A stretch of DNA of 64,000 nt from Octopus vulgaris. Taxonomy: Eukaryota. Positions within the stretch are counted from its first letter, which is position 1. Each line of letters starts with the position of its first letter. Both the position numbers and the translations under genes were made by a program. The DNA lies in assembly GCA_951406725.2 (NCBI GenBank), contig OX597839.1:12772001-12836000 (forward strand). Reading direction: 5' to 3'. Under the pieces are notes generated by a model. That model was not told the origin of the DNA and searched no databases. It saw only the letters and a list, made by a program, of their open reading frames with translations. Of this stretch, positions 3,481 to 52,328 are shown in pieces.

Positions 3481-4130
3481 AGTAAATAAATGGAGTTGAA
3501 CGAAGATGTCATTAAAATTCTTTTACTTTCGACATATGTTTCGAAGCCAACATTGGTTTTATTCCAGAGGAATAAACGGTGTAAAATGCAATCTTCTCAT
3601 CAGGAAAGAAAGAGAGTCTATCTCAACAACAAGACATTATAACAATTACGATGACTGCCTAAATGATAAATAGAACGTTATTAAGTATTTAAAAAAACCA
3701 TTTAGTAGATTTGACGTCAGATACTAGGAAGAGAAGGGTAAAAGAAATAATAAGTAGAGAACAAATAAAGAGGGATACGTTGGTTGAAAAAATGTTCAAA
3801 GGCTTAGAAGTAGATTTCTCTATTGAAGTAAAGTGCACGTTAAACTAACTGTTCAAACTATAAAGACTGGCGAAATCACTTATATGAGTTAAAGGTATGT
3901 TTCTGCCAGTGTTTACATTTGTAAGATCGCTCTATAAAATCAATGTTGTCTTCGAAACATATGTCGAAAGTAAAAGAATTTTAATAACATCTTCGTTCAA
4001 CTCTATTTATTTACTTATACTACACAAATTACTGCACATTAACCTGGAGTTTCTACCTTTGAATAGGTCGCTTCATCCGTGTTACTTGTATGTTAACGGT
4101 AAACAAAGGATAATTCATTCATCCATTTAA
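3481..4130 (-). mobile_element. Hammerhead-bearing Penelope-like/retrozyme element, family A, with partial inverted copy
   Basis: TA-flanked. 3481-3557 recurs inverted at about 3941-4015. Full hammerhead on the minus strand. Confidence 0.75.
3526..3608 (-). ncRNA. Type I hammerhead ribozyme (family A)
   Basis: Minus strand reads ctttc-CTGATGA-gaag...cttc-GAAAC-atat-GTC-gaaag; all three stems pair. Predicted cleavage after the C at 3531. Confidence 0.85.
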
Positions 4131-4789
4131 ATATATATATATATATATATATATATATATATATATATGCATGTACATATATATGTATGTATATATACAC
4201 ATACACGTATATGAGTGCATGCACGTGTATGTGTGTGGGTATGTGTAGCATTCCAATACGGCATGTGTTTGTTTTCAATCAGGAAATTCGTTGCAAACGA
4301 TAAACTGAGTTTTGGCAGATTGAATAATGACATCAGTAAAATTCTGGCCAACAAAATTGTATACAAACATCCCCACCAGTTATTCAAGAGATAACATCAT
4401 CGCAGACCTGTCCAATAGACTTGTTCTGAAGTATTTATTAAAAGAAACTTACAGAAGTCAACAGACAGCAAAAAAGAAAAAAGACGGGAGCAAACAACAA
4501 GTAGAATTACAAAGAGGAAAGGTGGGGAGAGAGAAAGAGACAACTTCGGGTTTCATTCATTATCAGCTGATGAGGTAAACCAGATGCACTAAATATGAAA
4601 TATCTGCAACACGAAATGATCTAGCTTCTACTAGCAGAAGGCTAAATTATGTTAGATAACACTCGTATTTATCCACTCATCCCATTTCTCTGTCTTTGCT
4701 TCCCTCTCTCTCTCTCTCTCTCTCTCTCTCTCTCTCTGTCTCCCTCTCTCTCTCTCTAGATATCTCTCTCAGCTACACACATCCATAGA

Positions 4790-5075
4790 AGCTGTTTAAC
4801 CAAAGCCTTGTGAGTGGATTTAGTAGAAGGAAACTGAAGGAAGTCTGTTGTGTATATATTTATATATGTATGTATATGTTTGTGTATCTGTGTTTGTCCC
4901 CCCCAACATCGCTTGACAACCAATGCTGGTGTGTTTACATCCCTGTAACTTAGCAGTACAGCAAAAGATACCGATAGAATAAGTACTGGGCTTGCAAAGT
5001 CCTGGGGTTGATTTGCTTGACTAAAGGTGGTGTTCCAGCATGGCCACAATCAAATAACTGAAACAAATAAAAGAA
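4790..5075 (+). mobile_element. SINE, 5'-truncated
   Basis: Body and tail (ccagcatggccacaatcaaataactgaaacaaataaaag) match the SINE family. Confidence 0.7.
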
Positions 5076-5383
5076 TACATATATGATATGATATGAATAT
5101 ATATATATATATATATATATATATATATATATATATATATATACACATATATATATATACATATATATATATATATATATATATATATATATATATATAT
5201 ATATATATATATATAAACAAATCAAAATTGCGATAAAATAAAAATAATTATAATCGCTGGTATTACTAACACAAGCCATATATTTTTCATATATCAGTAC
5301 ATTAAGGCGAAATATGTGCTAGGAATACAGAAGCTTGATAAATTAAGTGAAATGAAGATAAAAACATTTACTAAACCGGTAAT

Positions 5384-5455
5384 TCTCAGACTGCAGTTTC
5401 TTTCTTTTCAGCAATAAAGATAATTTATTTGCTCAGGGAGAATTCTTCAGTGAGA
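5384..5455 (-). ncRNA. Type I hammerhead ribozyme (family B, copy 1)
   Basis: Minus strand reads tctca-CTGAAGA-attct...agaaa-GAAAC-tgca-GTC-tgaga; the base of stem II is imperfect. Confidence 0.75.
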
Positions 5456-5780
5456 CCCTGTTTTTCTGGGATCCTAACTCACTAGAAGCATGTGCTTCTA
5501 ATGATTTACTCTCCCTAACTAATCATATCACTGCGCAGACTCCGAACGTCCCGACAGAACTAGGGAATTCTGGTATATCGCCTGGCACTCATAATTTATC
5601 GAGAAATATGTAAACAAATCAAAATTGCGATAAAATAAAAATAATTATAATCGCTGGTATTACTAACACAAGCCATATATTTTTCATATATCAGTACATT
5701 AAGGCGAAATATGTGCTAGGAATACAGAAGCTTGATAAATTAAGTGAAATGAAGATAAAAACATTTACTAAACCGGTAAT

Positions 5781-5852
5781 TCTCAGACTGCAGTTTCTTT
5801 CTTTTCAGCAATAAAGATAATTTATTTGCTCAGGGAGAATTCTTCAGTGAGA
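5781..5852 (-). ncRNA. Type I hammerhead ribozyme (family B, copy 2)
   Basis: Same motif as 5384-5455, shifted by one 397-bp unit. Confidence 0.75.
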
Positions 5853-6203
5853 CCCTGTTTTTCTGGGATCCTAACTCACTAGAAGCATGTGCTTCTAATG
5901 ATTTACTCTCCCTAACTAATCATATCACTGCGCAGACTCCGAACGTCCCGACAGAACTAGGGAATTCTGGTATATCGCCTGGCACTCATAATTTATCGAG
6001 AAATATGTAAACAAATCAAAATTGCGATAAAATAAAAATAATTATAATCGCTGGTATTACTAACACAAGCCATATATTTTTCATATATCAGTACATTAAG
6101 GCGAAATATGTGCTAGGAATACAGAAGCTTGATAAATTAAGTGAAATGAAGATAAAAACATTTACTAAACCGGTAAGTATATATATATGTATATATATAT
6201 ATA

Positions 6204-50057: not shown

Positions 50058-50299
50058 CTATCTGGATGAAATCCACTCAATCACACGCCAGATTTTACCA
50101 TAACGATAAATACGCGTGTGGTTCAATTGATTACATCCGACGTTATAATTCAAATGCCCCAACTAACAGCGCGCCAAATTTTCACGGAAAACAAATACAG
50201 CATTTGAATTATAACGTCGGATGTAATCAATTGAACCACACGCGTATTTATCGTTATGGTAAAATCTGGCGTGTGATTGAGTGGATTTCATCCAGATAG

Positions 50300-50381
50300 T
50301 TTTGGCTGAAGAGCTACAAGTGGATTTTATTGTAAGTAAAATTACATTTAATTCATTAATAGCGAAACAATTGTCCCAAAA
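50300..50381 (+). ncRNA. Type I hammerhead ribozyme (family D, inverted copy)
   Basis: ttttggctgaagagcta...tagcgaaacaattgtcccaaaa read directly; predicted cleavage after 50375. Confidence 0.87.
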
Positions 50382-50832
50382 TAATCTGTATTTGTTATTT
50401 TTTATTTGCCCTGTCCGTGTGAGCTAACAATCGTACTGACTTTCATGGGAAACATGTATTTTTGTGGTTGAAACCTTTTGGATTAACTGGTGCTAGAGCG
50501 AGCCATATAGTGACCACTCTCTTATATTTATTTTGTAAAAATATTATAATATATTATAAAATATTATAATAATCCAGGTTTCTCGGAGCACTAGGCCACT
50601 TGGTGTAGAATAGATATACTATTAAATTAGTATCTAATTCTCTCACCCTTATTAATTAATTATAATTATGCTGCATTTATTTCTAAATGCTGTATTTGTT
50701 TTCCGTGAAAATTTGGCGCGCTGTTAGTTGGGGCATTTGAATTATAACGTCGGATGTAATCAATTGAACCACACGCGTATTTATCGTTATGGTAAAATCT
50801 GGCATGTGATTGAGTGGATTTCATCCAGATAG

Positions 50833-50914
50833 TTTTGGCTGAAGAGCTACAAGTGGATTTTATTGTAAGTAAAATTACATTTAATTCATTAATAGCGAAA
50901 CAATTGTCCCAAAA
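50833..50914 (+). ncRNA. Type I hammerhead ribozyme (family D, inverted copy)
   Basis: Same motif. Confidence 0.87.
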
Positions 50915-51468
50915 TAATCTGTATTTGTTATTTTTTATTTGCCCTGTCCGTGTGAGCTAACAATCGTACTGACTTTCATGGGAAACATGTATTTTTGTGG
51001 TTGAAACCTTTTGGATTAACTGGTGCTAGAGCGAGCCATATAGTGACCACTCTCTTATATTTATTTTGTAAAAATATTATAATATATTATAAAATATTAT
51101 AATAATCCAGGTTTCTCGGAGCACTAGGCCACTTGGTGTAGAATAGATATACTATTAAATTAGTATCTAATTCTCTCACCCTTATTAATTAATTATATAT
51201 ATACATATATATATATATACATATATATATATATACATATATATATATACATATATACATGTATATATACATATATATATATATATATATATATATCTAT
51301 ATATATACCAATTAAGGACTGAACACGAAAAGGTGGACAGTCAACATGCTAGATATAGACGTCAAATAGCCATTCTCCACAAAGATTTTGTTCTCAAATA
51401 AAAATAAAATTCAGCACGACCTAAAGCAATGGATGAGACAAAAGAAATATACTAAATGGAATAATTAC

Positions 51469-51528
51469 CTACGTACTGCAGTTTCAGTTATTAATATCAC
51501 AAGGATATCTGTAACTTCATCAGCGTAG
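51469..51528 (-). ncRNA. Type I hammerhead ribozyme (family E, GUA triplet)
   Basis: ctacg-CTGATGA-agtta...taact-GAAAC-tgca-GTA-cgtag on the minus strand. Confidence 0.87.
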
Positions 51529-52268
51529 TTTGTTATGAGCATAATATGCTGTACTAGATGAAAAACGGTACCGGAGTCCCGCATGCAAAAAGTACAACCT
51601 ATTACGTTCGGATGTATCTTTCGAATGCCTCTACTTTTGGCGCGCTGATAATCGAAAAACTAGCCTGCAGCCAATAAATTAGCAGCAGTCAATTTATCGG
51701 TTTGAGAACATATATTTCATGTTTAAAAATTAAGGGTAGAAATTGATATTAGTCAATTAAAACCAGTGGTCTAGCACATTAAAAAGAATCCGAAGATTAA
51801 AATATTTATATATACCAATTAAGGTATATACCATTTAGTATATTTCTTTTGTCTCATCCATTGCTTTAGGTCGTGGTGAATTTTATTTTTATTTGAGAAC
51901 AAAATCTTTGTGGAGAATGGCGATTTGACGTCTATATCTAGCATGTTGACTGTCCACCTTTTCGTGTTCAGTCCTTAATTGGTATATATAAATATTTTAA
52001 TCTTCGGATTCTTTTTAATGTGCTAGACCACTGGTTTTAATTGACTAATATCAATTTCTACCCTTAATTTTTAAATATGAAATATATGTTCTCAAACCGA
52101 TAAATTGACTGCTGCTAATTTATTGGCTGCAGGCTAGTTTTTCGATTATCAGCGCGCCAAAAGTAGAGGCATTCGAAAGATACATCCGAACGTAATAGGT
52201 TGTACTTTTTGCATGCGGGACTCCGGTACCGTTTTTCATCTAGTACAGCATATTATGCTCATAACAAA

Positions 52269-52328
52269 CTACGCTGATGAAGTTACAGATATCCTTGTGA
52301 TATTAATAACTGAAACTGCAGTACGTAG
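52269..52328 (+). ncRNA. Type I hammerhead ribozyme (family E, inverted copy)
   Basis: ctacgctgatgaagtta...taactgaaactgcagtacgtag read directly; predicted cleavage after 52323. Confidence 0.87.

Follow-up and report, generated by a model that had tools for sequence, protein, structure and literature searches.

We analysed a 64,000-nucleotide stretch of Octopus vulgaris DNA (contig OX597839.1, positions 12,772,001 to 12,836,000 of the forward strand), called the window below and used as the reference for all coordinates. It contains 11 complete hammerhead ribozyme motifs in five families (A, one motif; B, two; C, one; D, five; E, two), and in every one of them helix III is written as a perfect 8-nucleotide (nt) palindrome. 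We read the repeats of families A–E as non-autonomous, Penelope-derived retroelements whose hammerheads favour the dimer and whose family specificity arises passively, and we put the probability of this reading at roughly 0.78.

Palindromic helix III in five hammerhead families

The window was searched with a structure descriptor that carries no palindrome requirement and with a second variant that also accepts minimal stems. The palindrome-blind descriptor gave 13 matches, 11 of them with a perfect 8-nt palindrome at positions 15.1–16.1; the other two both belong to a sixth family, F. The minimal-stem variant returned 15 rows; 60 block-wise dinucleotide shuffles gave a mean of 0.28 and at most 1, with no palindromic hit. 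The hammerhead core (CUGANGA, GAAA and NUH) is exact in A, B, D, E and F and carries the substitution U4C in C. The basal stems of A–E measure 5–7 base pairs (bp) for stem I and 4–5 bp for stem II, the latter being an extended hairpin of 31–61 nt. By core and stems, the motifs of A–E are type I hammerheads and are predicted to cleave.

The sole complete copy of family A lies on the minus strand at 3526..3608 (C3 at 3603), with helix III ACATATGT at 3532-3539 and predicted cleavage after 3531. Family B is represented on the same strand by B1 (5384..5455, with A·A at 10.1-11.1) and B2 (5781..5852), in which the palindrome ACTGCAGT occupies 5390-5397 and 5787-5794, and the single copy of C (12570..12661, minus strand) has ACGTACGT at 12577-12584. 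Three D motifs are found on the minus strand (48911..48994, 49444..49527 and 49975..50058) and two on the plus strand (50299..50382 and 50832..50915). Their palindromes, ACAATTGT at 48919-48926 in the first, start at 48919, 49452 and 49983 (minus) and at 50367 and 50900 (plus). E1 (51469..51528, minus strand, GUA triplet) and E2 (52269..52328, plus strand) have ACTGCAGT at 51475-51482 and 52315-52322, respectively.

Helix III reads AC-N4-GU with a self-complementary centre in all 11 motifs. The AC…GU frame is invariant hammerhead core consensus and leaves only the four centre bases free; at the composition of the window such a centre is palindromic with P = 0.072. Palindromes in five of five families are expected by chance with a probability of 2e-6, and in at least five of seven, with F and a further family, G, counted as misses, with 3.6e-5 (3.6e-4 when C and E are merged). 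In addition, the two variable helix III pairs covary, with a score reached in 0 of 500 shuffles, although on six rows and thus with low power. From the shuffle, composition and covariation tests we conclude that helix III palindromy is real and exceeds chance. The initial annotation of this DNA had stated that every intact hammerhead has a perfect 8-bp palindromic stem III, in four different sequences. This is correct for all 11 motifs of A–E but not for the core-intact family F, in which the palindrome is interrupted. The word intact is itself loose, since C reads CCGAUGA and B has its A·A mismatch, though the palindromes stand in both. The four palindromes do occur at hammerhead positions, one of them shared by B and E, but 8 bp form solely in a dimer. 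Other copies of the four 8-mers (1178, 14878, 31660, 31850, 44912, 59216 and 59406) were set aside as lying outside any hammerhead context. Looser matches to CUGANGA…GAAA, located at 4567, 45155 and 29535/57104, failed the descriptor, as did the two non-palindromic sites, 15483 and 37512, among 14 of the form GAAAC-N4-GTH.

Family F, which the initial annotation had missed, is a fold-back element spanning both strands at 34744..34989, with arms 79% identical and two head-to-head cores (C3 at 34853 on the minus and 34878 on the plus strand); its duplicate is located at 62300..62545 (C3 at 62409, minus, and 62434, plus). CUGAUGA, GAAAC and GUA are all kept, and helix III is a 9-nt interrupted palindrome, ACTA-A-TAGT, which is still near-palindromic. 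The mismatch at 10.1-11.1, U·U or C·U, is no worse than the A·A of B. An assignment of F as a C/D-box small nucleolar RNA was rejected on inspection (about 32 nt between the boxes, no terminal stem). The decayed motif G1 (26183..26263, minus strand) has an identical twin, G2 (53753..53833, minus strand), within a 27.6-kb segmental duplication that has doubled both F and G. The earlier statement that this decayed copy has lost the palindrome was borne out (G1 has ACACCTGT). With an extra A in GAAA and weak stems, G falls outside the hammerhead definition, and its helix III is one substitution away from two palindromes. Because G1 and G2 are identical, the loss counts as a single decay event and carries little weight. 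Downstream of G1, 114 nt show 82% identity with the E element; a derivation of G from E by decay was nevertheless rejected, since only these 114 nt align and the motif itself does not. Finally, an inverted 5'-truncated A copy (3934..4015, plus strand) has kept GAAAC-palindrome-GUC and lost CUGAUGA.

Non-coding elements that carry the motifs

The elements of A–E are non-coding, with a longest ATG open reading frame (ORF) of 26–77 amino acids, and all five are bordered on both flanks by (AT)n, within which any target-site duplication would be indistinguishable. The B array (5216..6176, minus strand) consists of 2.4 copies of a 397-bp unit. The C element (12275..13021, minus strand) comprises about 1.3 units of about 569 bp and has a 179-bp terminal direct repeat. 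In the D array (48771..51193), units of 531–533 bp, three on the minus and two on the plus strand, diverge from about 50200, and the E insertion (51308..52593) is a 517-bp inverted repeat of 99.6% identity with a unit of about 505 bp. The G+C content is 34% for the B unit and 32% for the D unit, with a range of 31–34% over B and D units. Inverted arrangements are seen in A, D and E and partial tandems in B, C, D and E, and 5'-truncated inverted copies are present. The strict two-unit definition of a retrozyme in a recent preprint (bioRxiv 10.64898/2026.07.22.740005) covers B and D only. The insertion signature of Penelope-like elements (PLEs) combines partial tandems with a neighbouring copy that is inverted and 5'-truncated and a bias towards microsatellites or (TA)n (PMC8557442). 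We read A–E as PLE-derived because their partial tandem and inverted 5'-truncated structure and their (AT)n bias fit this pattern.

Three of the families share a 3'-terminal motif, ACT(T)GGT…ACCCTT next to (AT)n, found in D at 51131..51183 (plus), in E at 52537-52572 (plus) and in C at 12286-12331 (minus). All nine matches to this pattern on both strands of the window lie within C, D or E, the pattern having been written post hoc, and the motif may mark the end that an autonomous partner shared by these families recognises. A looser copy is present at about 3385-3457 (plus), and the segment 3277-3423 matches the C terminal repeat with 72% identity. At the opposite end, two of six insertions begin just downstream of the predicted cleavage position: the B array, whose 5' end at 6176 (minus) lies 7 nt downstream, and the plus-strand E copy, whose 5' end at 51822-51832 (plus) lies 4–15 nt downstream, the junction being ambiguous. 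The 5' ends of C, of both D insertions and of the minus-strand E copy are not near it. For a 12-nt interval, chosen post hoc and falling short of the far end of the E range, two of six ends correspond to P of about 0.008. Such ends may reflect a cleaved template or stalling of reverse transcriptase (RT) at the ribozyme (stem I).

Near-perfect inverted repeats extend over 49162-51197 (2035 bp, 98%) in D and 51308-52489 (517 bp, 99.6%) in E and, on read-through, would give long double-stranded RNA; the E read-through transcript is predicted to fold as one long hairpin. Two further observations concern the same elements. The region 4324-4640 (plus) is a possible decayed Penelope remnant: the word LYTNIP at about 4370, a PLE-like RT motif, is followed by CTGATGAG…GAAA at 4567, which fails the descriptor. 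A homologue search with the region around 4370 was empty, a weak negative. The stem I 3' arm CGTAGGTAA is common to C (12570-12575, minus) and E (52324-52332, plus), motifs that are otherwise unalignable; AG/GTAA within it resembles a 5' splice site. Introns can occur in the pseudo-long terminal repeats (pLTRs) of PLEs.

Dimer folds and pairing between families

Helix III of a single RNA amounts to 2 bp and a tetraloop, and 8 bp arise only between two copies. In nearest-neighbour modelling, which leaves tertiary contacts and Mg2+ outside the model, the pairing probability of stem III in the monomer is at most 0.03 in five of five families. Across all five of A–E, the energy of the modelled double hammerhead is lower than that of two monomer folds by 11.2–16.9 kcal/mol, as compared with 8.4 in F and 5.9 in G. 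This fold is the unconstrained minimum free energy (MFE) structure of the dimer in three families (C, D and E), and it is also the MFE structure in both native D tandem transcripts, with duplex probabilities of 0.18–0.21 and 0.07–0.09. Dimer-enhanced cleavage is likely on these predicted folds. In published assays of the axolotl 2-bp type, the monomer cleaves 22% in an hour and the dimer does better (PMC7229834), and Aedes and Nematostella motifs were inactive when assayed, with dimers proposed as the reason (PMC3088659). The initial annotation had gone further and suggested that cleavage may be conditional on tandem-copy transcripts. The palindrome-mediated dimerisation that this presupposes is reproduced by the modelling, but conditionality is not established, as same-strand copies within the window exist for B and D only (two of five families; none for A, C and E) and invertebrate monomers cleave.

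Several results weigh against the reading of A–E as Penelope-derived elements with dimer-favouring hammerheads. The dimer MFE structure of A and B is not the double hammerhead, and in the native B tandem the double hammerhead is not formed, with a duplex probability of 0.00. The single-motif folding z-score is strong only for D (−4.3), one of eight falling below −2.5. An Rfam scan of the whole window gave no hammerhead match at gathering score, nor did one at E <= 10 in 3481-6176 and 48780-52570. This miss is probably due to the long stem II hairpin and lowers membership in the Rfam families, leaving the assignment to the type I class untouched; microRNA matches in Rfam were rejected as (AT)n artefacts below gathering score. 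The 78 ORFs scanned (19 + 59) contain no match to PLE RT or GIY-YIG, and none of the elements has an RT + GIY-YIG ORF between pLTRs, by which an autonomous PLE is recognised. Since the RT matches of the window occur in an AP-endonuclease context or as fragments, the autonomous partner is not in the window. In other animals, monomers of coral and mussel hammerheads, in which helix III has 2 bp and a tetraloop, reach cleavage rates of about 0.8 and 0.1 per min (PMC7229834), and only one of nine predicted Xenopus dimers cleaved in vitro (bioRxiv 10.64898/2026.07.22.740005).

The coral and mussel retrozymes raise the possibility that the octopus motifs act mainly as monomers as well, with tertiary contacts between stems I and II rescuing the 2-bp stem and the palindrome being inherited or a mere booster. 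In the monomer folds of C, D and E, both stem I and stem II have a high predicted probability of forming (0.87–0.99); in A and B they are absent from the MFE structure. The internal loops, separated from the junction by 4–5 bp in stem II and by 5–7 bp in stem I, sit where tertiary contacts usually lie and are plausibly placed for a loop 1–loop 2 contact. Three of the five families (A, C and E), moreover, have no same-strand partner in the window. A monomer, however, has no need of a palindromic loop, yet all five families keep one and its pairs covary; the very low stem III probability of the monomer folds and the inactive Aedes and Nematostella motifs likewise count against monomers. We regard mainly monomeric action as possible but doubtful.

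We consider it unlikely, and less probable than monomeric action, that the motifs are mostly inactive in vivo, hammerhead descendants carried as passengers of pLTR-like repeats whose inverted arrays are silenced as double-stranded RNA. Such a state would fit the defective cores or stems of B, C, F and G and the long hairpins expected from D and E read-through transcripts, as well as the poor in vitro activity of PLE motifs (PMC4209133), the eight inactive Xenopus dimers and the spread of Naiad PLEs without canonical hammerheads (PMC8557442). Some of these defects are known tolerated variants, however: U4C lowers activity in vitro yet is sufficient in a viroid, and U·U at 10.1-11.1 has been described among natural hammerheads (PMC3088659). 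Five unalignable families all retain core, stems and palindrome, which argues for selection while each family was mobile, and in the arms of family F none of 20 core positions differ, as against 16 of 76 elsewhere (p = 0.016).

In a double hammerhead, the stem I 5' arm of one RNA pairs with the 3' arm of the other. For two RNAs X and Y joined by pairing of A15.1 in X with U16.1 in Y, X supplies CUGANGA and the 5' arm of stem I, and Y supplies the 3' arm and the cleavage site. Because of this topology, stem I is exchanged along with helix III. Between B and E, stem I amounts to 0 and 2 bp with a pairing probability of 0.00 at both sites, and one direction cannot form even the pair 2.1–1.1. As stem I is missing, no three-way junction is predicted for B×E, and B and E together would form at most a palindrome-only duplex. 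A cross-family stem I of at least 4 contiguous bp is found in two of 20 ordered A–E pairs, both of them C×E (6 and 5 bp). Here the arm swap has a probability of 0.85–0.91 given association, the binding is only −1.5 kcal/mol and helix III is not formed, the palindromes being different. For unrelated arms, compatibility is expected at 0.038 per unordered pair; stem I orthogonality is the default for such arms. The number of palindromes is equally unremarkable, as four distinct ones in five families have a probability of 0.42 (uniform) or 0.47 (composition-weighted) among 16, with 4.4 expected. Diversifying selection on the palindromes was therefore rejected, the count fitting random choice.

These results bear on the proposal of the initial annotation that the palindrome could act as a family-specific pairing code; if the palindrome alone decided, B would cross-activate with E but not with D. 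Self pairs of palindromes are indeed far stronger (−6.4 to −11.1 kcal/mol) than mismatched ones (−0.5 to −2.2 or positive), the B and E palindromes pair fully and a B+E duplex can form. The stem I requirement and the chance-level diversity of the palindromes contradict the code, and cross-activation of B and E falls with the B×E stem I figures given above, the palindrome being shared and stem I not. Sharing of a palindrome within one genome is also found in Aedes, with CGCG, GGCC and CGCG in three families (PMC4209133, supplement including Fig. S3). We hold the palindrome-only code to be the least probable of the explanations weighed here, and very improbable in itself. Physical orthogonality of the families is supported by the modelling; selection for orthogonality is not supported and matches chance. 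We consider it very unlikely that stem I arms and palindrome form a two-part self-recognition key selected against cross-family cleaving or jamming, though we rate this slightly above the palindrome-only code. A literature search, the coverage of which leaves out most subscription papers, found no paper on cross-family pairing codes. If the key were real, B/E (palindrome shared, stem I not) would give a dead or inhibitory heteroduplex and C/E (stem I shared, palindrome not) an arm swap without the 8-bp helix, the two pairs together making a natural factorial test of the recognition key. Selected self/non-self recognition or B–E inhibition, if true, would amount to competition between non-coding mobile RNAs.

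We return to passive specificity in Penelope-derived elements and propose the following scheme. A–E would be retrozymes lacking long terminal repeats (non-LTR retrozymes) or pLTR derivatives inserted in (AT)n, each unit with one AC-N4-GU type I hammerhead whose helix III would by itself be a marginal stem of 2 bp. An encounter of two same-family copies, in a tandem transcript or as RNAs in trans, would let the palindromes build a helix III of 8 bp, with stem I arms swapped between the copies, to give two active sites. By analogy with published systems, the precursor would then be cut to unit-length RNAs that undergo circularisation and reverse transcription via an autonomous, Penelope-like partner. 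The palindrome would be retained as its self-complementarity favours the dimer fold, and the choice among the 16 possible palindromes would be left to drift in each family. Family specificity would be a passive by-product of stem I and helix III acting jointly, and because it rests on both, B and E would not cross-activate.

Surroundings and known systems

The window is eukaryotic DNA of 36% GC, rich in (AT)n arrays, repeats resembling short interspersed elements and fragments of long interspersed elements (LINEs). Self-BLAST was used to map repeats within it and revealed a tandem segmental duplication, 25405-36026 versus 52974-63581, whose copies are offset by about 27.6 kb and about 99.5% identical. 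A host gene with a death domain has its terminal coding exon at 39003-39205 (plus; Pfam Death, E = 5e-7), with acceptor and stop visible. A further exon may lie within 26638-27267 (plus); a homologue search with the acidic ORF at 26.6–27.3 kb found none. The four hammerhead loci of single orientation (3603, 5450/5847, 12655 and 26259) share the minus strand, opposite in sense to the death-domain exon, and plus-strand motifs are confined to inverted repeats; this strand bias is weak (1 in 8, two-sided). LINE ORFs occupy 9635-11221 (minus), 13255-16372 (plus) and 20584-23713 (minus), two with RT (PF00078) and AP endonuclease and the third with a PHD-like insert within RT. A weak Helitron_like_N match (E = 0.0013) was obtained at 44600-44770 (minus). 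A 373-bp element that begins with TACTAG and is placed between (AT)n runs occurs at 25405-25776 and 52974-53344; it may be a non-autonomous Helitron-type repeat, which it resembles. A 162-bp tandem repeat at 23868-24474 (3.7 copies, 97%), which adjoins (AT)n, was rejected as a hammerhead repeat as it has no CUGANGA core.

Palindromic helices of this kind have been described before. Most metazoan type I hammerheads have a helix III of 1–2 bp with a palindromic loop of 2–4 nt and work as dimers, under the consensus 'GAAAN Palind NUH' (PMC4209133), and the three Aedes families mentioned above combine different and shared palindromes in one genome. According to extracted figure text, Fig. S8 of PMC3088659 tabulates palindromic helix III as AC-CGCG-GU and AC-GGCC-GU in Schistosoma mansoni and AC-AGCU-GU in Nematostella. 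The tandem-dimer model is repeated in reviews (PMC6765202, PMC6466107, PMC6155905, PMC7761336). Palindromic helix III with several palindromes per genome was thus already published in 2011–2014, the window families add new members to an already known class of ribozymes and retroelements, and the dimer half of the initial interpretation is known biology and probably right.

The closest likeness of architecture is offered by metazoan non-LTR retrozymes, hammerhead-bearing non-coding tandem units (PMC7229834) for which an origin from pLTRs has been proposed (bioRxiv 10.64898/2026.07.22.740005). In both sources, as in the window, the units are non-coding, low in GC and tandem, with one type I hammerhead each, helix III has 2 bp and a tetraloop, there are several families per genome, and monomers occur beside short multimers. 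The window units, at 397–569 bp, are larger than the circles of about 170–400 nt (PMC7229834) but fall inside the retrozyme range of 51–972 bp given in the preprint. Further differences are the stem II of 31–61 nt and the (AT)n insertion with inverted copies.

Hammerheads of PLE pLTRs (PMC4209133) agree with those of the window in the palindromic helix III, the dimer model, pairs of inverted motifs spaced by 100–700 bp, an insertion structure of partial tandems and inverted 5'-truncated copies, and microsatellite bias, and family F resembles a Hydra entry with a 9-nt interrupted helix III (PMC4209133). Unlike them, the window elements have no RT or GIY-YIG ORF, and their motifs are non-minimal (4-nt insert), mostly without the extra nucleotide between 9 and 10.1, and longer in stem II. 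The repeat hammerheads of Schistosoma, Nematostella and Aedes (PMC3088659) share the 8-nt palindrome design, with two sequences in the S. mansoni genome, and differ in that the palindrome centres of the window are others and its motifs have a longer stem II and stay below Rfam thresholds. With newt and axolotl satellite 2 and avocado sunblotch viroid the window motifs have the double-hammerhead principle in common, and axolotl dimers outcleave monomers (PMC7229834). The amphibian Amex1 type, however, has a 1-bp stem, whereas the window motifs are of the 2-bp Amex2/invertebrate type, which keeps monomer activity (PMC7229834). Through the window, this known class gains six hammerhead families that have long stem II hairpins and go unrecognised by Rfam, together with a ready set in which the need for dimers and interference between families can be asked among animal repeat hammerheads.

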